Shown: positions 3,323-30,203 of the stretch, piece by piece
Layout of the letters: each line of letters starts with the position of its first letter
Numbering within the stretch: position 1 is the stretch's first letter
NCBI GenBank assembly: GCA_965198325.1
Contig: CBDAPE010000019.1
Span: 335,063 to 399,062 of the forward strand
Reading direction: 5' to 3'
Source of the DNA: Alphaproteobacteria bacterium
GTDB taxonomy: Bacteria > Pseudomonadota > Alphaproteobacteria > UBA828 > JAPUJA01
DNA length: 64,000 nucleotides
Made by a program: the position numbers and the translations under genes
The notes under the pieces: model-generated
Databases searched by the model: none
What the model saw: the letters and a program-made list of their open reading frames with translations, nothing else
Told to the model about the DNA's origin: nothing

Positions 3323-3712
3323 ATGAGCAAAACCGCCATGGACCTCGTCGCCGACGCGAACGAGGCAATCGAGACCATCGACGTCGACGACGCCCGCAAG
3401 ATCCACGGCAACGCCGACGTCATCTTCGTCGACGTGCGCGAGCCGCCCGAATTGACCCGCACGGGCACGGTTCCCGGCGCACTTGTCACACCCCGGGGCA
3501 TGCTCGAATTCGCGATCGATCCGTCTCTGCCGACCCACAACGAAGGCTTTTCGGCCGACAAGCTGTTCGTGTTCTTTTGCGGGAGCGGTGGGCGCTCGGC
3601 CCTGGCGGCCAAGACTGCCCAGGATATGGGATTGGAAAAGGTCTGCAGCATGGCCGGCGGCATCCGCGCCTGGATCGAATCCGGCGGCGAGTTGGAGACC
3701 CAGGGCGACTGA
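3323..3712 (+). CDS. single-domain rhodanese-like sulfurtransferase
   Basis: ATG at 3323 preceded by GAAGGGAGA. Rhodanese active-site loop FFCGSGGRS with catalytic Cys. About 130 aa. Confidence 0.8.
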   Translation: MSKTAMDLVADANEAIETIDVDDARKIHGNADVIFVDVREPPELTRTGTVPGALVTPRGMLEFAIDPSLPTHNEGFSADKLFVFFCGSGGRSALAAKTAQDMGLEKVCSMAGGIRAWIESGGELETQGD

Positions 3713-3719
3713 GCGCCCC

Positions 3720-3816
3720 TGGCGGAAGAGAGTGGGAGTCGAACCCACCCGGGACGCGAGCCGCGCCCCACACCGGGTTTGAAGTCCGGGCGCCCCACCG
3801 GGGACGAGCCTCTTCC
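3720..3816 (-). tRNA. selC: tRNA-Sec (selenocysteine tRNA, anticodon TCA)
   Basis: The 97-nt reverse complement has the defining Sec structure: 8-bp acceptor stem (GGAAGAGG/CTCTCTTCC), 6-bp D-stem with 4-nt loop (CGTCCC-CGGT-GGGGCG), anticodon loop CTTCAAA identical to E. coli selC, long variable arm, GGTTCGACTCC T-arm, CCA. It lies immediately downstream of selB. Confidence 0.9.
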
Positions 3817-3847: not shown

Positions 3848-5776
3848 TCAAGCGACGGGGCGGCCGGGCCGGTCAGAGCCTCGATTTCGCAGCCGCCGCA
3901 CCGTATCGAGACGCTCGGTCAAACCGGTACGGTCGAAATACTCCAGCACTTCGATCGCGAGATTTCGACCGATCCCCGCCCGGTCGCGATAGGCGGCGAC
4001 GGTGAAGCGGCGATCCGGGGAGTCCATTGCGAGCGCTTCGGCGGCCGCCGCCAGATCGCGCACATGGTCCACTGAAAGAAACCGGTTTTCGGAGACTCGC
4101 GCGACCAGACCCAGGCTCTCCGCGCGTTGCAGGAACCGCCGGAGGGCCGCAGTCTCGAGGTCGAGGCTTTCGGCCAGTTCGTGGACCACCGGCGCCGCGG
4201 CGCTCGATGCAAGTTGCGGTCGGACGCGCCGCCACAGCGCCTGGTCCGGCCCAGGCAACGTCGGCTTGAAATCGGCCAGGGCGAGCCGGGCACCCATCCG
4301 CCGGATTTTGCCCGTTTCCGCCAAGGCGTCGACGACGCCCTCGATCAGGGGAATCGGCACACGCCGCTCGAGCCTGCGCCGCAAGCGGTCGACCTCGATG
4401 CCGGTTCGTTCCGGCTGTTCCTCGTGGCCACGCCCCAGCGCAGCGAGGATGGCTACCTTCAGGGCACGGCCGTGAGCAGGCGACAGGCCGTAGCGAGACG
4501 CCGCCCGATCGACGTGCACCATATCGGCCGCCCGCCACAGCGCCGCGGCGGCGGCTACCGTCAGGTTGCGCGCGCAGGCGAACCGGTTGAGATCGACCCC
4601 GTCCGGTGTCGCGACGAGCAGCGCGGCGAGAGCATCGGGGGCGCTATCGGCCGCCATGCCGGAAAGTGCCGCGAGACGGGCGTGTTTGGCCCGCCCGCGC
4701 GCGGGCGCGAACGGGTCGATGACCCGGCCGCCGCCGACGGTGTGCCGGGAGGTGCCGTCCCTGAGCACGAAGCGGTCGCCGAACAGTGCACCGATGGGGC
4801 GGTCAAGGACGAGTTGGGCGAGCCCCGTCTCTCCGGGCTCGATCGACTCGCGATCCAGCGGATGAACCCGGGCGGTCACGTGGGCCGCGCCGAGGTAGAG
4901 ATGCACGAGCGTTCTCGACCGGAGCACCCGGCGTTCTCCACCCAGCACCCGGATACATCCGTCGAGGCGCGGCGTCGGCGCGTGAGCGGGTTCGGCCACC
5001 AACCAGTCGCCACGGCCAATGTCCGTCCGGCTCAAGCCGCGCCCCGCAATATTCAGCGCACAGCGCTCGCCGGCTCTCGCCTCGGCCGCCTCCCGGTTGT
5101 TGGCGTGAATCCCCCGCACACGAACCGCAGCGCCCATCGGTGAAAGAACCAGGCTATCGCCAATCTGCGCCGTTCCCGACCAGACTGCGCCGGTTACGAC
5201 CAGCCCTGCGCCATCCAGCGTGAAGCAGCGATCGATCGCGAGGCGAAAATTGCCGCAGGGCGCTCTTGGCGCCAGCGCCGCCGCCTCGCGCTCCAGCCAC
5301 GCCCGAAGGGCCGCGATGCCTTCGCCCTGCGGGCTCGCGACGGGAAACACGGGCGCGCCGGCCAGCGGGCCCTCCCCCAGCAACGCAACCAGGGCGCCCA
5401 TCACCTTGACCCGCCTCGTCTCATCGATGCGGTCGATCTTGGTGAGTGCGACCGCTCCGCCCTCGATCCCGAGCAGCTCGAGAATCGCCAGATGCTCCGC
5501 TGTCTGCGGCATCGGCCCCTCGTCGGCGGCAATCACGAGCAGCGCCCGGTCGATTGCTCCGACCCCGGCCAGCATGGTGGCTATGAAGCGCTCGTGACCC
5601 GGCACGTCGACGAACCCCAGCATGTCCCCGCCCGCCGTCGGCTGGTAGGCAAAGCCCAGGTCGATCGACAGGCCCCGGCGCTTCTCCTCCGCCAGACGGT
5701 CCGTCTCGATCCCGGTCAGCGCGCGGACGAGCGCGGTCTTGCCGTGATCCACGTGCCCTGCCGTCGCGCCGATCAT
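3848..5776 (-). CDS. selB: selenocysteine-specific translation elongation factor SelB
   Basis: 642 aa. N-terminal GTPase (AGHVDHGKTAL, DVPGHERF, TKID), then EF-Tu-like domains and C-terminal winged-helix region. Its start overlaps the selA stop (ATGA). Confidence 0.9.
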   Translation of the reverse strand: MIGATAGHVDHGKTALVRALTGIETDRLAEEKRRGLSIDLGFAYQPTAGGDMLGFVDVPGHERFIATMLAGVGAIDRALLVIAADEGPMPQTAEHLAILELLGIEGGAVALTKIDRIDETRRVKVMGALVALLGEGPLAGAPVFPVASPQGEGIAALRAWLEREAAALAPRAPCGNFRLAIDRCFTLDGAGLVVTGAVWSGTAQIGDSLVLSPMGAAVRVRGIHANNREAAEARAGERCALNIAGRGLSRTDIGRGDWLVAEPAHAPTPRLDGCIRVLGGERRVLRSRTLVHLYLGAAHVTARVHPLDRESIEPGETGLAQLVLDRPIGALFGDRFVLRDGTSRHTVGGGRVIDPFAPARGRAKHARLAALSGMAADSAPDALAALLVATPDGVDLNRFACARNLTVAAAAALWRAADMVHVDRAASRYGLSPAHGRALKVAILAALGRGHEEQPERTGIEVDRLRRRLERRVPIPLIEGVVDALAETGKIRRMGARLALADFKPTLPGPDQALWRRVRPQLASSAAAPVVHELAESLDLETAALRRFLQRAESLGLVARVSENRFLSVDHVRDLAAAAEALAMDSPDRRFTVAAYRDRAGIGRNLAIEVLEYFDRTGLTERLDTVRRLRNRGSDRPGRPVA

Positions 5777-7190
5777 CGTGAGCCTGCGGGCTGCTCCAGG
5801 GCATCGAGCTGGCCGGCCAGCGCGTCCTCGTCGTCGAGGCCCCTGAGGTCGAACCGAAGGGCGCCGTCCTCGATCCGCCCGATCACCGGAACCGGCAAGG
5901 CGCGGAAGGCCGCCGCCAGCCGCTCGAGCGCCTTGCCGCTCCCCCGCCTGCCGGTGTTCGGGCTCAGCGCGAGCGCCACGCTTTCCAACCGGCTCGCGGG
6001 CTGGGCGCCGCTGCCCACTTGGCAGTCGGTTGCGATGATCTCGACCGCCACCCCCTCGAGCCTGGCGGCGAGCAGGGGCCCCAGGCGGCGAGCTACGGCC
6101 TCGATCTCGGACAACGGCCGGGTCATCTGGCGCAAGGCCGGCAGGCGCGCGGCCAGCCGGTCCGGATCGTCGTATAGCCGCAGCACGGCGTCGAGCGCGG
6201 CGAGGCTCAGCTTGTCCAGCCTGAGTGCCCGCTTCATGGGATTGCGGCGGAGTCTGGCGATCAGGTCCCCGCGCCCTACGATCAATCCTGCCTGGGGGCC
6301 GCCCAGCAGCTTGTCGCCGGAAAAGCTCACCAGATCGGCGCCGTGGGAAACCGCCTCGCCCGCCGTGGGTTCATGGGGCAGGCCGTAGCGCGCGAGGTCC
6401 ACGAACGCGCCGCTGCCGAGATCCACGATCAGCAGCAGCCCGTGATCGTGCGCCAGTGCTGCGAGCGACCCTTCGGGCACGGCTGCGGTAAAGCCCCGCA
6501 TCTGGAAATTGCTGAGGTGAACCCGCAGGATCAAGGCCGTGCGCGGCCCGATCGCATCGGCATAACCGGAACCATGCGTGCGGTTGGTGGTGCCACCTCG
6601 ATAAGCCGGCAGCCCGCGCGCGCCATGATGTCGGGAAGGCGGAACGAGCCGCCGATCTCGATCAGTTCGCCCCGCGAAACGATGACCTCCTTGCCCTTCG
6701 CAAGGCTGTTGAGCGCGAGCAGCAGGGCTGCTGCGTTGTTGTTCACCGCGGTCGCGGCCTCGGCCCCGGAAAACCGGCAAAGCCGCTCCTCGATATGGTC
6801 CTCGCGCTCTCCCCGCCGTCCTTTGGCGAGATCGTATTCGAGCGTCGAAGGGCCACGCGCCACCGCCGCGATTGCCGCGATCGCCTCTTCGGGCAGGCTC
6901 GCGCGGCCCAGATTAGTATGGATCAGCGTGCCCGTCAGGTTGAGCACGGGCCGCAGACTCGGCTGGCCGCGCGCGGCAAGGCAGGCGCCGACCCGTTCCC
7001 CGATCGCGCCTTCGCTGGCCTCGGGTGGATCGGCGGCCGCGTCCGCCGCCACCGTATCCCGCCAGTCGGACAGCACCGCGCGCACCGCCATGGTCGTGGC
7101 GTCGCGGCCGTGCGCCTCGATCAGCGCCTGGACGACCGGAAACCGCAGCACCCGGTCGACCGAGGGTATCGCTCGGTGCAATGAACTCAT
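5773..7190 (-). pseudogene. selA: L-seryl-tRNA(Sec) selenium transferase SelA, frame broken by a 1-nt deletion
   Basis: N-terminal part is ORF 6531..7190 (...AGCRLIEV|APPTARM*). C-terminal part is ORF 5773..6780 read one frame back (...GTTNRTHGSGYADAIGPRTALILRVHLSNFQMRGF...). Restoring one G in the GG run at about 6593-6596 (gaggtgGcacc to gaggtgGGcacc) gives the conserved SelA segment RLIEVGTTNRTH in one ~470-aa frame. Confidence 0.8.
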
Positions 7191-7474
7191 GACGCCTGCC
7201 GCCTTACCCCACTCCCGCGTGAACCAATGAAGCTAGCGCAAAATCCGATACTGTGGAAACAACCCGAACCTGCAAACCCGCGCCGGCCGCGGGCGCGACC
7301 AATGGTTATGGCCCGCGGGCAACCGCAGGGTGGGGCCAGCTCCGGGCGTGTGTCATGATCTTCGTTCAGCACCAGCGTGCGAACGGGGCGCAAGGGATAT
7401 AGGAATTTGTCCCTGCCCTCGCTCGCTCACGGAGGGGCCGGGCGCCCATTCGAGAACCAGGGGGAGACGCTGCG

Positions 7475-8464
7475 ATGTCAAAGGCACAGGTGATCCACGA
7501 ACTCGGCCCGCCCGAGGCCATGCGGTGGGAAGAGTGGGCGGTACCCGATCCGGCGACCGGCGAAGTCCGCTTGAGGCACACGGCGGTGGGCGTGAACTTC
7601 GCCGACACCTACCACCGGGGGGGCGTCTCCCATCCGGTGCGGGTGCCGGCCTGCCCGGTGGTGGTCGGGTTTGAAGGGGTCGGGGTCGTCGAGGGCGTCG
7701 GCGACGGTGTGAGCTAATTCAAGCCCGGCGATCGCGTTGCCTATGGCATCCCGCCGCTGGGCAGCTATTCCGAGGTGCGGAACTATCCCGCCGACAAGCT
7801 TCTCCATCTGCCCGACGGCCTTGATGAACGGGTTGTGGCCGCGCTCCTCATGAAGGGGATGACGGCCCATTACCTGTTACACCGGACCTACAAGGTGCAG
7901 CCCGGCGATACCATCCTGGTGCACGCCGCGGCGGGCGGCATGGGACTCATCCTGTGTCAATGGGCCAAGGCGCTCGGCGCCACGATCGTCGGCACGGTCA
8001 GCACCGAGGAAAAGGCCGAGGTCGCCCGCGCAGCGGGATGCGACTATCCGGTCGTGCGCTCCAGGGAGGATTTTGTCGCCAAGGTTCGTGAAGTCACCAA
8101 CGGTGAAGGAGCGGCCGTCGTCTATGAGGCGATTGGCAAGGACACCCTGCAACAATCGCTCGACAGCCTGCGGCTGATGGGCGTCTGTGCGGCCTATGGC
8201 CATGTCTCGGGCCCGCCCGATCCGGTCGACGTGATCCAGGACCTGGGTCGCCACGGCTCACTCTACATTACCCGGCCCGCGATCACGCACTACGTGGCCA
8301 AGCGGTCCGACCTTGAATGGACGGCCCGGGATCTCTTCAAGGCCATGGACGATGGAATTCTGGACGCGAACATCAATTACGAGTACCCGCTAAAGGACGC
8401 CGTCAAAGCCCATCAGGCACTCGAAAGCGGCACGACACTCGGCGCGACGGTTCTCATCCCCTGA
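7475..8464 (+). pseudogene. qor: quinone oxidoreductase (Qor-like, MDR/zinc-ADH superfamily) interrupted by an in-frame TAA
   Basis: ORFs 7475..7717 and 7775..8464 share a frame and together form one Qor-like protein (...GVVEGVGDGVS * FKPGDRVAYG...AAGGMGLILCQWAKALGA...). The TAA at 7715-7717 sits where Qor proteins have a sense codon before the conserved FKPGDRV. Good RBS GGGGGAGA before the ATG at 7475. Confidence 0.75.
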
Positions 8465-8573: not shown

Positions 8574-9062
8574 TTACGCCAGCGCGCGAACGGCCATGAC
8601 GAGCGATGCGGCCGCCGCCAGCGGCACGACTGTTCGAACGTGATTCCACGCTGTCCAGGCAGACAGGTAGCGGGTCCACAGTTCGGCCCCCGCCCCGTTG
8701 CCCGGTTTCACCGCGGCCAGCTCATTGTTGAGCGGAACGTTGAAGACGATGGTCACCAGGATACAACCGATCAGGTAAAGCAGGCCGCCTGCGACCAGAT
8801 AGATCGACCCGTGCGCTTCCCAGTTGAGGAGTCCCAGCACGCAAAGCGCGATCGAGCCCAGCGCGGTCCCGAAAAAGGCGCCGAAGAACCAGGGGTTGAT
8901 GACGACCACGTTGATCGACTGCATGGCCGCGATTCCCTGTTCGGGTGGCAGGCGGCCGAGAGCGGCCATGACGAAGGTCGAGAAGGCGAAGAAGACACCG
9001 GCGACCAGGGCGGCGCCCAACGCCGTCAAGACGGCGATTGTGCTGATCAGGATGGTGTCCAT
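8574..9062 (-). CDS. DUF1772-like small membrane protein (4 predicted TM helices)
   Basis: 162 aa, very hydrophobic with four ~20-aa apolar segments. The family call is from memory of DUF1772 anthrone-oxygenase-like proteins. Confidence 0.55.
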   Translation of the reverse strand: MDTILISTIAVLTALGAALVAGVFFAFSTFVMAALGRLPPEQGIAAMQSINVVVINPWFFGAFFGTALGSIALCVLGLLNWEAHGSIYLVAGGLLYLIGCILVTIVFNVPLNNELAAVKPGNGAGAELWTRYLSAWTAWNHVRTVVPLAAAASLVMAVRALA

Positions 9063-9901
9063 TACCCGATCCCCCAGACGCCGGTTGCAGCCGCATCCCG
9101 GCCATAGTCGGCGAAGTCCCTCGGCGGACGACCGAGAGCGCGATCTACGCCGTCCGCAACGAACTCGTTGCGACCGTCGAGCACGGTCGTGAAGAGATAC
9201 ATCACAAGCGAAGCGACGTTGGGCGGAACCTCGTGCGCTTCGAGCAGCGACGCGTAATCGTCCGCGGAAATTTCCTGGTAGCGGATCGTCCTGCCGCTTG
9301 CCCCGGCGATCTCGCCGACCGCATCGGCGAACGTCAGCAGGCGGGGTCCGGTCACCTCGTAGAGCTGACCGATGTGTGACGCATCCGTCAGCGCCGCCAC
9401 CACGACATCCGCGATGTCGTCCGCATCGATGAGCGGCTCTTTCGTTCCGCCCGCCGGCAAGGCGACCTCACCGGCAAGCACGGCGTCGAGAAGAAAGCTT
9501 TCGCTGAAATTCTGCGCGAACCAACTCGCCCGCACGATTGTCCAGTCGGCACCGCTATCCTGCAGCGCCCGCTGAGCGCGCTGCGCTTCCTCTTCGCCGC
9601 GCCCCGAGAGCAGCACGATACGCCCGACCCCGGCCGCGAGCGCCGTCTCGGTAAACGACCGGACGGCGTCGACCGCGCCCGGCACCGCCAGATCGGGATA
9701 ATAGGCGATGTAGACCGCGCCCACGCCGTCCAGCGCGGACGCCCAGGTCGCTTTATCGTTCCAGTCGAAGCGCGGCTCGCCCTTACGCGATCCGATCCGC
9801 ACCGCAAACCCGTGATCCCATAATTTCTGCGCCACGCGGCTGCCGGTTTTGCCCGTGCCGCCAAGAACCAGGATCGGCTTCGTCTTTTGCATGTCGGTCA
9901 T
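9062..9901 (-). CDS. NmrA-like NAD(P)-binding protein (atypical SDR)
   Basis: Start at MTDMQ, with GGAGG 5 nt upstream. Rossmann motif LVLGGTGKTGSRV. 279 aa. Divergent from tetR. Confidence 0.75.
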   Translation of the reverse strand: MTDMQKTKPILVLGGTGKTGSRVAQKLWDHGFAVRIGSRKGEPRFDWNDKATWASALDGVGAVYIAYYPDLAVPGAVDAVRSFTETALAAGVGRIVLLSGRGEEEAQRAQRALQDSGADWTIVRASWFAQNFSESFLLDAVLAGEVALPAGGTKEPLIDADDIADVVVAALTDASHIGQLYEVTGPRLLTFADAVGEIAGASGRTIRYQEISADDYASLLEAHEVPPNVASLVMYLFTTVLDGRNEFVADGVDRALGRPPRDFADYGRDAAATGVWGIG

Positions 9902-9945
9902 CGTCGCCTCCAAAGATGATAGGTTTCGTTTCCAATTCATTGTCA

Positions 9946-9962
9946 CTTGACACTATGTCAAG
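9946..9962. promoter_or_regulatory. candidate TetR operator: perfect palindrome CTTGACA-CTA-TGTCAAG overlapping the tetR start codon
   Basis: 7-bp inverted repeat with 3-bp spacer in the NmrA/tetR divergent intergenic region. The tetR ATG (9955) lies inside the palindrome. Confidence 0.55.
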
Positions 9963-10554
9963 CGATAAATCCGACACCCGGCAAAGAATTCTCAACGCCG
10001 CCGTGAATCGGCTCGAAGCGGGCCAGGGCGACGGCGTGCGCATGGCCGATATCGCCAAACAGGCAGGCATCAGCCGCCAGGCGCTCTATCTTCACTTCGC
10101 CACGAGAGCGGAGCTTCTGATCGCCACGACGCACTATGTCGACGAGGCGTTGGGGATTGAAGAGCGCCTTGTGCCGAGCCGCACGGCGCGCTCGGGCGTC
10201 GAGCGCCTCAATGCCTATATCGAGGCCTGGAGCGGCTACATCCCGGAAATCTACGCCATCGCCAAGGTGCTTCTCGCGATGCGCGACACCGACCACGCGG
10301 CGGCGCAAGCCTGGGACGAGCGGATGGGGGCCATGCGCGAAGGCTGCGCGGCAGCAATCGACGCGCTGGAGCGCGACAAGATGCTCTCGCCCGAGCATTC
10401 GCCCGACGAGGCCACGGATATTCTCTGGACGATGCTCTCGGTCCGCAACTGGGAACAGCTCACGATGGGCTGCGACTGGTCCCAAGAGCGCTATATCGAG
10501 ACGCTCAAATCACTGGCACGGCGTATTTTCGTGGCGGAACGCGGGTCCGGCTGA
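9955..10554 (+). CDS. TetR/AcrR family transcriptional regulator
   Basis: N-terminal HTH (TRQRILNAAVNRLEAGQGDGVRMADIAKQAGISRQALYLHF). 199 aa from the ATG at 9955; ORF track 9916..10554. Confidence 0.85.
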   Translation: MSSDKSDTRQRILNAAVNRLEAGQGDGVRMADIAKQAGISRQALYLHFATRAELLIATTHYVDEALGIEERLVPSRTARSGVERLNAYIEAWSGYIPEIYAIAKVLLAMRDTDHAAAQAWDERMGAMREGCAAAIDALERDKMLSPEHSPDEATDILWTMLSVRNWEQLTMGCDWSQERYIETLKSLARRIFVAERGSG

Positions 10555-10649: not shown

Positions 10650-11849
10650 CTAGGCCCAGAACCGGGGCACGATAAGAAACATCTCCACGAGCTGCTTGAG
10701 CGCCTTGTCGTCGCTCTCTTCGCTCAGCGCCTCGAGCGCGAGGATCGCCTTGGCGGCCTTGGTCTCGGCCCAGAACCAGTCGCCGAGATCTTCCATCCCG
10801 GTCATCCCTCGTGAGCCGCTCGCGGTCTCGGTGTAATAGGCCCAGAGGTCTTCGCAGGCGAGCTTGAGCATCATGAGCGGGGGCACGCCCTTGCGCGGGC
10901 TCTTGACCTTGTCGGTCGTCAGCCAGCTGACGATAAAGGGTGCCAGCTCCTCGATCGCCAGCTCGCTCGCCCCGACGGGCGTCCGCCCGCGCCGGGCGAC
11001 CGCCGCGTCGTACTCGGGCCGGATTTCGGCAATCTCCGCCTGGATTTCGGCCAGCAGCCTTGCCGGGTCCGCCCGGTCTTCGGGCTTCGAGACCAGTTCG
11101 TTCGGCAGGGCATGGGTCATGCGCCGGCCGCGTATGGGAACGACCACGGGATAGTCGGCCAGAACCGGCCCCACGGGTGCGTCGAACAGAGCGAAGGCGG
11201 CGCGGATGACGCCTTTCTGAAAGTCGGGATCGTTCGGCTTGCCGAACGGGCGGCCCATGGGCATGTCGAGCCACAGCGCACGGGGCGCCCCGATCGCGGC
11301 GGCATGCTCGCGGACGAAACAGACCAGCGTCGTTGCCAGCCCCTCTTTCTCGAAGAAATATGCAAGCCCGCACACGGTGCGCGTGCAGAACGGTCAGACG
11401 GGGGCGAGCAGAACCGTGTTGACGCCCTCGGCCTTCATGCGGCTCGCGACGTCGTGCACGCTCTTTTCATACTCCAGCGGGTCGGTCGCGCCCATGAAGG
11501 AATAATGGGTCTCGGCCACCGCGCCGATCTCACCGTCCGCCGCCATCTCCTTCAGGCGGTCCACCGGCAGGATCGCATTGAGGTCCTGCTACCACGCGGT
11601 GCGGTCGTAATCCACCGCGACATGAGTCATCACGAGGTTCTTGTCGTCGGCGTCGAACGCCCGGTAATCCCGAGCGGACCAGCTAAACGGCTTGTCGCCC
11701 CGTTTGCTCAACCCCGCCGAGGAGACCACCGCCACCTTGCGCTCACGTGCAGCCACGGGCGCCGTCCAGGGCCGGTCCGCAAAATCCGGCATTTCGAGCT
11801 CCTCGAACATCTCGCGTGGCAGCTTCGGCATGTCATGCATCAGAACCAT
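10650..11849 (-). CDS. candidate selenoprotein (family unresolved, possibly GrdB/PrdB-like reductase B); one frame carries an in-frame TGA (Sec?) at 11394-11396 and an in-frame TAG at 11589-11591
   Basis: ATG at 11849 with GAGGAG 6 nt upstream. Frame reads 86 aa, TAG, 64 aa (...MKAEGVNTVLLAPV), TGA, then PFCTRTVCGLAYFFEKEG... for 247 aa (the ORF-track piece 10650..11375 starts at an internal GTG). U-x-x-C redox motif; GC hairpin 6-26 nt after the TGA. selABC is 4 kb away. Confidence 0.45.
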
Positions 11850-14201: not shown

Positions 14202-14825
14202 ATGCGCAAGCCAAAAACCTTGAAGGCGCTCAAAGAACTGGGGCGGGTCCGTCTCTCGCGGAGCTTCTTCATGCGGAATTTCCTCTACAGCGAGGTGAGC
14301 AATTTCTACGGCATCCCGAACCTCCCCGACGATCCGGACCTGGCCATCGCGGCGGGGCGCGCGCTATGCGAGAACATCCTCCAGCCCCTGCACGACACCC
14401 TCGGCGCGGTGGAGATCCGCTCGGCCTTCCGCTCGGCGCGAGTCAACCGCTACTGCAATACCCACGGCGGCAATTGCGACAAGAACGACAAGAATTACGC
14501 CCGTCACATCTGGGACCGGCGCGATGCCGACGGGGCGATGGGCGCCGTCGCCTCGATCGTCCTGCCCTGGTACCTGCCGCGTTATGAGAAAACCGGCGAC
14601 TGGCAGCCGCTCGCCTGGTGGCTGTTCGATACCCTGCCCTGTAGCGAGCTGCAGTTCTTTCCCAAGCTCGCCGCCTTCAACGTCGGCTGGCATGAGAATC
14701 CGAAGCGCATCATCCGGAGCTACGCTCCGCCCAGGGGCATTCTGACCCGGCCCGGCATGGCCAACTACGAGGGTAGCCACGCAAAGCACTACCGGGGGTT
14801 TCCCCGGCTGCGTCGCGCGCGCTGA
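14202..14825 (+). CDS. hypothetical protein (207 aa), basic and Trp/His-rich; weak resemblance to Zn D,D-peptidase-like (peptidase M15) folds
   Basis: ATG at 14202 inside ORF 13980..14825. Sequence FMRNFLYSEVSNFYGIPNLPDDPDL...HGGNCDKNDKNYARHIWDRRDADGAMG. I recognise no confident family. Confidence 0.4.
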   Translation: MRKPKTLKALKELGRVRLSRSFFMRNFLYSEVSNFYGIPNLPDDPDLAIAAGRALCENILQPLHDTLGAVEIRSAFRSARVNRYCNTHGGNCDKNDKNYARHIWDRRDADGAMGAVASIVLPWYLPRYEKTGDWQPLAWWLFDTLPCSELQFFPKLAAFNVGWHENPKRIIRSYAPPRGILTRPGMANYEGSHAKHYRGFPRLRRAR

Positions 14826-14867: not shown

Positions 14868-16040
14868 ATGCCCCTCCTCGCCCTCGTTGCGGCCGTCCTG
14901 TGGAATCTGTTCATCGGCCTGTTCTATTGCTGGAGCGTCTTCATCGTGCCGCTGGAAGAGGCGCTCGACGTTTCACGTGCGAGCGTGAGCGCGGTCTTTT
15001 CGGTGGGCATCGCGTGCTACGCCGGCGGCATGTTCCTCTCGCCCCACCTGCTCGCCCGCGTCCCCCTGCCCCGGCTTGCCGCAGCGCTCGGACTCGGCGC
15101 AGCGCTCGGGCTCCTGATCGCCGGACTGGGGGCCAGCCTCGGCGCGCTGATCGCGGGCTTCGGCATTGTCTTCGGGCTGACGGCGGGCGCAGGCTATGCG
15201 CTGGCGCTGCAGGCAGCGAGCGGCGAGCTGCCGGTCAGGCGCAGCTTCGCCATCAGCATCACGGTTACCGCGTTCGCTACGGCGGCGCTGCTCTGGCCCA
15301 AGCCGCTCAGCCTGCTGATCGCCGCTCTGGGGCCGTTTACGACCCTCATCCTCTACGCCGGGGCGATGGCCGGAATCGGGCTCGTCATCGCACTCCTGCT
15401 TCGGCTCTCGGGCGCGCGGGCGCCGGCCGCGGACGACGCCGAGGCGACACGGATCTTGCACAACTTCCTGACCGACCGGCCGCGCGTCTTCGTGCTGATC
15501 TGGCTCAACTTCGTCTTCCTGGCGATGGGTGGCTTGACGGCGTTGAGCCACGCCGCCGGCATCGCCGGGGCCTTCGGCGTTCCCCCGGATCAGGTCTATT
15601 TCGCCCCGATGGTGACGAGCGTCGGTTATGTCGCCGCCTGCCTGTGCGCGGGCCCCATGACCGACTGGCTCACGGGCCGGCGCGTGCTGATGGGCCTCTC
15701 GGGCGTCATGATGGCGGCTCTGCTGGCGCTGTTCCTGGCCCCCTCGGCCTGGCTCAGCCTGCTTGTCCTGGCCCTCGTGGGTGCCAGCTTCGGCGCGACG
15801 GCTGCGGTTTATCCGGTCACCGTCGCGAGCTATTACAGCATCTCGGAAATGGGCCGCATCTACGGCCGGATTACGCTCGCCTACGGCACCGGCGGCATCG
15901 CCGCGCCCCTCATGGCCGGTGCACTCTACGACTGGGAAGGCGGTTACCACTGGTCGCTGCTGATCGCGGCCGGGTTCGCCGCCGCCGGAATCGCTGCAAG
16001 TTCGGCGCTGCCGCAGCCGGCCCGAACAACCGCCGGATGA
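14868..16040 (+). CDS. MFS transporter
   Basis: 390 aa, Ala/Leu/Gly-rich with about 12 TM segments. Its 3' end lies inside the 85-bp direct repeat. Confidence 0.8.
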   Translation: MPLLALVAAVLWNLFIGLFYCWSVFIVPLEEALDVSRASVSAVFSVGIACYAGGMFLSPHLLARVPLPRLAAALGLGAALGLLIAGLGASLGALIAGFGIVFGLTAGAGYALALQAASGELPVRRSFAISITVTAFATAALLWPKPLSLLIAALGPFTTLILYAGAMAGIGLVIALLLRLSGARAPAADDAEATRILHNFLTDRPRVFVLIWLNFVFLAMGGLTALSHAAGIAGAFGVPPDQVYFAPMVTSVGYVAACLCAGPMTDWLTGRRVLMGLSGVMMAALLALFLAPSAWLSLLVLALVGASFGATAAVYPVTVASYYSISEMGRIYGRITLAYGTGGIAAPLMAGALYDWEGGYHWSLLIAAGFAAAGIAASSALPQPARTTAG

Positions 16041-16054
16041 TTATCTACCCGCTA
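15970..16054. repeat. 85-bp perfect direct repeat, copy 1 (last 71 nt of the MFS CDS plus 14 nt of 3' flank)
   Basis: Identical to 16146..16230: ccgggttcgccgccgccggaatcgctgcaagttcggcgctgccgcagccggcccgaacaaccgccggatgattatctacccgcta. Both copies are followed by an A-run plus GG. Confidence 0.9.
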
Positions 16055-16145
16055 AAAAGGGGGTTGAACCTTTGCCCCGGCGGTTATCCCAAATCACTAC
16101 CCAGATAGTCGACCTGGCTGATTCTGCGCAAAATTCCCTCAGCAC

Positions 16146-16230
16146 CCGGGTTCGCCGCCGCCGGAATCGCTGCAAGTTCGGCGCTGCCGCAGCCGGCCCG
16201 AACAACCGCCGGATGATTATCTACCCGCTA
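16146..16230. repeat. 85-bp perfect direct repeat, copy 2 (non-coding; 91 bp of unique sequence separates the copies)
   Basis: Exact duplicate of 15970..16054 at 176-bp periodicity. The second copy has no upstream start codon in the MFS frame. Confidence 0.9.
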
Positions 16231-16308
16231 TAAAAAAGGCCGCGTTCAAATCGGACGAGTCACCGGATATCCAGGCCTTCGAAGCCGCCCGGGGCCGCCC
16301 GGAGCCGC

Positions 16309-29435: not shown

Positions 29436-30203
29436 ATGTCTCGTCGAAAGCGAATCTACGAGGGCAAGGCGAAAGTCCTGTTCGAAGGCCCGGAGCCCGG
29501 CACGCTGGTGCAGTATTTCAAGGACGACGCCAGCGTCGACAACAACCGCAAGCGGGGTACGATCACCGGCAAGGGCGTGATTAACAACCTTTGGATCTCG
29601 GAATATCTGATGACGCGCCTGAGCGAGGTCGGCGTGCACACCCACTTCGTCCGTCGGCTGAACATGCGCGAGCAGCTCGTGCGCGAAGTCGAGATCATCC
29701 CGATCCAGATCAACGTCCATAACGTCGCCGCGGGCGACTTCGCCCAGCGCCTGGGCCTGCGCGAGGGCGACGCCCTGCCCCGCTCGATCGTCGAATACCG
29801 CTACAAATCGGACGAGCTCGAAGACCCGTTCGTCTCGGAAGAGCACATCACCGCATTCGGCTGGGCGACGCCCCAGGAGCTCGACGAGACCCTCTCGATG
29901 TCGCTCCGGATCAACGACTTTCTTTCGGGCCTCTTCCTGGGCATCGACATCCGGCTTGTGGACTTCCAGGTCGAATTCGGCCGGCTCTGGAACAACGACG
30001 AGATGCGCATCATCCTGGCCGACGAAATCAGTCCCGATTCCTGCCGGCTGTGGGACGTCAAGACCAACGAAAAGCTCGATATGGACCGCTTCAGTAAGGA
30101 TCTGGGCCGGGTCGAGGAGGCCTATCAGGAAGTAGCACGCCGGCTCGGTATCCTGCCCGAAAGCGGCCCGCGCGACCTCCAGGGACCGGATGTAATGCAG
30201 TGA
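29436..30203 (+). CDS. purC: phosphoribosylaminoimidazole-succinocarboxamide synthase
   Basis: [31 protein letters not shown]... with GGAGG 7 nt upstream. 255 aa. Confidence 0.9.

Follow-up and report, generated by a model that had tools for sequence, protein, structure and literature searches.

The selenocysteine locus and its neighbourhood

The stretch analysed here (hereafter the window) comprises 64 kb of contig CBDAPE010000019.1 in assembly GCA_965198325.1, from an uncultured alphaproteobacterium. It carries a selenocysteine (Sec) decoding locus, selA-selB-selC, and close by it a gene related to those of the selenoproteins PrdB and GrdB (Table 1). selA is split by the loss of one base, and the PrdB/GrdB-like gene is interrupted by a premature TAG. 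Together these lesions make it likely that selA is a real pseudogene and that Sec decoding is being lost, a loss that is recent yet population-wide.

Table 1. Features of the sel locus and adjoining region (window coordinates)
Feature	Position	Strand	Remarks
Rhodanese-domain gene	3323..3712	+	Pfam Rhodanese; adjoins selC here and in sister species A, B and C
selC (tRNA-Sec), anticodon TCA, intact	3720..3816	-	ARAGORN; Rfam RF01852
selB, intact, 642 residues	3848..5776	-	Pfam GTP_EFTU, Beta-barrel_SelB and SelB winged-helix domains
selA, L-seryl-tRNA(Sec) selenium transferase, probable pseudogene	5773..7190	-	472 residues once repaired
SelA C-terminal coding part, -1 frame	5773..6594	-	Pfam SelA profile positions 119-366
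Truncated SelA N-fragment open reading frame, 219 residues	6531..7190	-	ATG at 7190, TGA at 6533-6531
One-nucleotide deletion site in selA	6593..6594	-	GAG GT[N] GGC to GAGGTGGC; alignment with sister species
qor (NADPH:quinone reductase), pseudogene	7475..8464	+	In-frame TAA at 7715-7717; divergent from selA
PrdB/GrdB-like selenoprotein gene, now a pseudogene	10650..11849	-	Pfam GRDB PF07355; 4-5 kb from selA
SECIS-like hairpin	11362..11386	-	11-35 nt past TGA; RNAalifold, five species
Sec codon TGA	11394..11396	-	Motif PV-U-PFCTRTVCG; TGA in four other species
Premature TAG	11589..11591	-	CAG (Gln) in species A and B; Gln in Cys-homologues

The two genes whose intact presence marks the Sec-decoding trait, selB and selC, are both sound, as an earlier sequence-only reading of this DNA had held. 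SelB scores 390 bits on TIGR00475 (cut-off 242), and tRNA-Sec reaches 73 bits against a gathering score of 47 (Rfam RF01852), with a compensatory stem change seen on alignment with relatives. The selB start overlaps the selA stop as ATGA at 5776-5773, again as that reading had described. From its conserved linkage to the locus, the rhodanese gene may serve in the delivery of selenium or sulfur. No selD lies within the 64-kb window.

A single-base deletion splits selA

Once repaired, the window selA matches its family model over the full length; as it stands, it lacks a single uninterrupted reading frame. From its ATG the gene encodes 199 native residues, which match Pfam Se-cys_synth_N and SelA profile positions 1-119, and then reads through the junction codons ATC GAG GTG GCA CCA CCA into a 20-residue out-of-frame tail, APPTARMVPVMPMRSGRARP, before the stop; the tail had earlier been read as APPTARM, which does not hold. 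The resulting 219-residue fragment is without the pyridoxal phosphate (PLP)-binding lysine (K294 of the repaired protein), the motif around which, FSGDK(294)LLGGPQAG, is encoded downstream of the break. The remainder of the protein lies in the -1 frame relative to the upstream one. This frame matches Pfam SelA from about 6600 to 5773 and holds GTTNRTH, the PLP-lysine motif and the C-terminal domain; its GTTNRT segment and PLP-lysine motif FSGDKLLGGPQAG are identical to those of Escherichia coli SelA. The two pieces thus adjoin at profile position 119 of PF03841, so homology to SelA holds for both. Gene callers begin the C-terminal part at TTG 6534-6532, giving a 253-residue product.

An extra G at the GG of 6593-6594 restores ...IEVGTTNRTH... 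and a SelA of 472 residues. On NCBIfam selA TIGR00474 (curated cut-off 267.9 bits) this product reaches 553.9 bits and covers model positions 2-448 of 455. Its alignment with E. coli SelA (PDB 8uzw) extends over residues 3-457, and EVGTTNRTH is the same in both. The sequence-only reading had proposed just such a repair, to about 470 residues, of a gene split within RLIEV-GTTNRTH whose C-terminal frame resumes one position back; each of these points is borne out.

The locus was compared with those of three syntenic sister species, found through homologues of a neighbouring gene. Species A is represented by four loci (L014-L017; NCBI GCA_963694715.1 and ENA assemblies), species B by four more (L018-L021) and species C by the gene calls of a 324-kb JGI contig. 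All three have an intact selA, of 486, 480 and 488 residues, respectively. Nucleotide alignment with A and B gives GAGGTCGGG and GAGGTGGGC against GAGGT-GGC in the window, and the deletion is the sole gap in the selA alignment whose length is not a multiple of three. Gene order is shared by the window and all three species, running from the suf operon through an MFS gene, a gene for a 210-residue protein, an enoyl-CoA hydratase gene and a further MFS gene to the GRDB-like gene, and from there through a variable slot to selA, selB, tRNA-Sec, rhodanese and RadC. Linkage of the PrdB/GrdB-like gene to selA-selB-selC therefore holds in all four species.

The linked selenoprotein gene carries a premature TAG

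The PrdB/GrdB-like reading frame holds two in-frame stops of very different kinds, a TGA and a TAG. The TGA is a genuine Sec codon. It is preceded in the sister species by an uninterrupted part of 151 residues, it occupies the active-site U position as TGA in five species, and full-length homologues P0155 and P0156 have Cys in this column (LPV-C-PNCSRTVCG, against APV-U-PFCTRTVCG in the window). A further 34 database homologues are annotated only from just past the TGA.

The TGA is followed by a hairpin resembling a selenocysteine insertion sequence (SECIS), with eight pairs, one of them compensatory, and an A-C in the window at pair 19-27. The hairpin is near-identical in nucleotides across species whose proteins are only ~65% identical. 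A G>A change in the window (Ala>Thr) breaks an upper-stem pair beside the apical loop, and may represent further decay.

The TAG has a different origin. It lies 64 codons upstream of the Sec-UGA and arises by a C>T substitution (CAG>TAG), so it cannot be explained as a homopolymer error. It is common to all three haplotypes described below, as judged from gene calls of 86, 56 and 241 residues; these three database 'hypothetical proteins' all derive from a single selenoprotein gene. The sole candidate selenoprotein gene of the window therefore has a UGA and a SECIS-like hairpin but no otherwise open frame.

Three families were tested for this gene (TIGR04483, TIGR01918 and PF07355). Pfam GRDB PF07355 is passed (52 bits against 22), and NCBIfam PrdB TIGR04483 matches across the Sec site at 106 bits, below its cut-off of 300; the score for various_sel_PB, 58, is likewise below the cut-off of 65.45. 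Because the NCBIfam scores fall below the curated cut-offs, the gene is best assigned to a related family and not to the PrdB or various_sel_PB equivalogs. It brings to light an uncharacterized PrdB/GrdB-related selenoprotein family that may be the reason why this clade keeps its Sec machinery. In two distant lineages the gene has other neighbours: in one (L023, 8205-11787) it adjoins a gene for a 727-residue Pyr_redox_2-SelD (AIRS/AIRS_C) fusion, and in the other (L022, 7053-10762) a molybdopterin oxidoreductase gene preceded by a 42-residue open reading frame (ORF).

A third lesion lies in qor

The qor gene is interrupted by a TAA within its ADH_N domain (VGDGVS*FKPGDRV, the asterisk marking the stop). 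The Pfam ADH_N match spans the stop, and NF008024 covers positions 2-327 of 327 across it. The TAA recurs in two of the related contigs considered below, contig_60 and the Logan contig, where gene calls of 80 and 229 residues flank it. In the sister species qor is missing at this place, which holds a gene for a 293-residue NAD_binding_2 dehydrogenase or GFA and cupin genes.

The lesions of selA, the PrdB/GrdB-like gene and qor cluster within 6.6-11.6 kb of an otherwise clean window. About 55 other window genes are undisrupted, showing that the assembly is not indel-ridden. Indeed, all 18 genes compared with species A and B are full length, and 19 ORFs at 35-64 kb span their Pfam profiles end to end. 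Genes were called with a self-trained codon score in place of a caller based only on GC content at third codon positions, which is too coarse at 64% GC. Four same-frame adjacent ORF pairs (13953/14826, 25439/26570, 33335/33659 and 35299/35914) were considered as genes with in-frame stops and rejected, being ordinary neighbouring genes.

The deletion recurs across assemblies and haplotypes

The exact 219-residue truncated SelA is also recorded in two other assemblies, on the 93.5-kb contig_60 of ENA ERZ25072526 (L012) and on Logan contig ERR13605531_154267 (L013), which was assembled straight from run ERR13605531. A third relative, a contig of ERZ25072076 (L011), was found through an exact SufC look-up. 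The related contigs are 99.8-99.9% identical to the window, and contig_60 and the Logan contig align to it gaplessly across the selA deletion site. Single-nucleotide polymorphisms (SNPs) define three haplotypes, represented by the window, by contig_60 together with the Logan contig, and by ctg218952. These SNPs are mostly transitions and, in housekeeping genes, mostly synonymous; because of the latter they are taken to reflect real strain variation. Since positions 5157-8130 show zero differences among the window, contig_60 and the Logan contig, the selA deletion is common to at least two haplotypes and three assemblies.

Several points weigh against a real loss. The selA lesion is known from assembled contigs and not from raw reads, the related contigs are long-read assemblies containing short-homopolymer errors, and the assemblies that share the lesion may stem from one study and one sequencing platform. 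In contig_60 the essential gene purC carries a GGG>GG deletion, a change of just the kind seen in selA, along with a TTT deletion (L010 ~1385 and ~1547; window 29755 and 29590-29592), and is called as a 101-residue fragment. Nor does selA show any sign of relaxed constraint beyond the frameshift. With divergence ratios of 2.19 and 1.88, respectively, selA and selB do not stand out from neighbouring genes (1.1-3.5), and the window SelA deviates at 6 conserved sites, against 9 and 4 in the sister species with intact selA. Finally, a second selA, selD and other selenoprotein genes are possible outside the 64-kb window.

The homopolymer errors are what an artefact would call for, namely a true GTGGGC whose run of three G is systematically under-called in every assembly, leaving selA intact in the organism; the frameshift as sole decay in selA, and the intact selB and tRNA-Sec, fit this too. 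We nevertheless consider it unlikely. The homopolymer indels among the related contigs are each private to one assembly. purC is intact in the window, and its indels in contig_60, like the differences of that contig at C5/C6 and G5/G6 runs (window 13836 and 14799), are assembly errors in contig_60 that show the error profile of these data. The selA deletion is present in three assemblies and two SNP haplotypes, one of the assemblies made straight from ERR13605531. The Logan contig passes through the selA site yet breaks off exactly at the C5/C6 run (window 13835/13836) that differs in length between the window and contig_60. A second frameshift is absent from the about 55 window genes, and the nonsense substitutions in the selenoprotein gene and qor are beyond the reach of indel errors. 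The deletion in selA is therefore probably real and not an assembly error.

Searches for an intact allele returned none from the same species. Among 5.8 billion protein clusters the best SelA match is 66% identical, and a GTDB genome scan with SelA gave only relatives of at most 62% identity, all intact. JGI metagenome contigs yielded no match to an exact 36-nt pattern permitting either allele, and no same-species contig by a SelA peptide pattern, hence no independent Illumina confirmation there. Exact look-ups of the window SelB, ribosomal protein S4 and P0173 (the 241-residue GrdB-like fragment) gave no match, and a literature search found no paper naming the ERR, ERZ or GCA accessions.

Signs of decay beyond the frameshift were also sought. 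Relative-rate and divergence tests on SelA and SelB gave no detectable acceleration, with an outgroup set biased towards the window. The six conserved-site deviations (counted over columns in which 120 SelA homologues are at least 97% conserved; their mean is 1) were considered as a sign of decay and rejected in view of the 9 and 4 in the sisters; two of the six are common to the whole clade. SNPs between haplotypes, given as nonsynonymous/synonymous, number 2/1 in selB and 3/2 in the grdB-like gene, too few to test.

Recoding or a two-piece enzyme

If the deletion is real, SelA could still be made by programmed -1 ribosomal frameshifting or transcriptional slippage. The C-terminal frame is indeed -1 relative to the N-terminal one, and the two overlap by ~250 nt. 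We regard this as extremely unlikely, and the sequence-only reading had also thought slippage improbable. No X XXY YYZ heptamer occurs where both frames are open, the gene's only one being at 6081, and there is no A or T run of five or more in that region. At the junction, tRNA-Val on GUG would be unable to re-pair on GGU. SelA is encoded in a single frame in species A, B and C and in nine more distant loci, so there is no conserved recoding.

Nor is it plausible that the two fragments assemble into an active enzyme. The called TTG start of the 253-residue C-fragment overlaps the stop of the 219-residue N-fragment as TTGA, which speaks for such a pair. Twenty native residues, GTTNRTHGSGYADAIGPRTA, which include GTTNRT, are however missing from both fragments, their place being taken by the out-of-frame tail, and no split selA was seen among relatives. 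A two-piece SelA is thus exceedingly improbable. Taken together, the retention of SelA activity through non-canonical recoding at GAG-GUG-GCA or through a two-piece enzyme is highly improbable; if true, it would explain the undecayed selB, tRNA-Sec and rest of selA, and the fixation of the allele in several strains.

Neighbouring genes

The slot between the grdB-like gene and selA varies among the species. Its window version (8574-10554) has TetR, NmrA-like and anthrone-oxygenase-like genes; species C has these too and species A some of them, whereas species B carries GFA and cupin genes there. A conserved protein of 207-210 residues, 84-86% identical in the sister species and without a match to any Pfam or NCBIfam family, is encoded at window 14202-14825 (plus strand), between the genes for enoyl-CoA hydratase and MFS. 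The window also carries a 177-bp insertion at 16059-16235 that is missing from contigs L010, L011 and L012, which are otherwise 99.9% identical to it. The insertion is made up of ~88 bp of unique sequence followed by 90 bp that directly repeat the 3' end of the MFS gene (15969-16058).

Selenocysteine decoding is probably being lost

A pseudogene best accounts for the window selA. Loss of one base from the codon pair GTN-GGC (Val199-Gly200) would take translation out of frame after residue 199 and terminate it 20 codons on. The predicted product has neither the GTTNRT segment nor the PLP-binding K294 (equivalent to E. coli K295) nor the C-terminal domain, and because of this the conversion of Ser-tRNA(Sec) to Sec-tRNA(Sec) would be abolished, as expected from established SelA biochemistry. 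UGA would then be left undecoded, and selB, selC, the UGA codon and the SECIS would be relics yet to decay. The lesion appears to have reached fixation in a natural population of this uncultured alphaproteobacterium, where the CAG>TAG change in the linked PrdB/GrdB-like gene would be a second hit on the same trait. It is the selA lesion in combination with the nonsense mutation in its client gene that points to Sec decoding being lost. In annotation, the window selA should be marked as a probable pseudogene.

The timing of the inactivation can be bracketed. Because selA shows no other decay, the event is recent on the between-species scale, yet it antedates the divergence of the strains sampled. 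The sequence-only reading had offered a very recent inactivation as one explanation. Inactivation is indeed favoured, but 'very recent' needs tempering, as the lesion arose before at least two co-circulating haplotypes separated.

If the lesion is real, the locus gives a clean natural view of an extension of the genetic code in the course of being lost. One point event each has disabled the synthase and its sole visible client, and the elongation factor, tRNA, UGA and SECIS remain.

Comparison with known systems

Once repaired, the window SelA resembles the canonical bacterial enzymes (E. coli, PDB 8uzw; Aquifex aeolicus, 3w1h) from end to end, including the N-terminal tRNA-binding domain. Unlike theirs, its frame is interrupted after residue 199.

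The linked gene shares with PrdB (D-proline reductase) and GrdB (glycine reductase) a model match across the Sec site and a UxxC context, and its Sec lies at about residue 151, as in PrdB. It differs in its motif, which is UxxCxxxxC and not the UxxCxxC of PrdB and GrdB, and in an extra C-terminal region of ~245 residues to which no Pfam family corresponds. Its neighbours include no grdA, prdA or prdC, and the host seems to belong to an aerobic-type alphaproteobacterial lineage, in contrast to PrdB/GrdB systems.

Loss of the Sec trait through frameshifts in sel genes is already documented, so the window is a further instance that leaves current understanding unchanged; its distinctive element is the client gene. 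In Yersinia pestis CO92 and Mediaevalis, selB is frameshifted and selA, selC, selD and the fdoG UGA are kept (Romero et al. 2005, PMC1273633). As in the window, one sel gene has been frameshifted, the other machinery and the client UGA have been retained, and the pattern is read as recent loss of Sec decoding. In Y. pestis, however, the gene hit is selB and the client a formate dehydrogenase (FDH), whereas in the window selA is hit and the client is PrdB/GrdB-like and also nonsense-mutated; moreover, the window organism, unlike Y. pestis, is uncultured and seen only in metagenome assemblies. Mycobacterium liflandii and M. pseudoshottsii carry selA/selB pseudogenes and FDH pseudogenes and keep selC (PMC13449736). 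These too combine decaying Sec machinery and a decaying client gene with a retained selC. Their losses are ascribed to genome-wide reduction and insertion sequence expansion, whereas those in the window are point events within about 5 kb.

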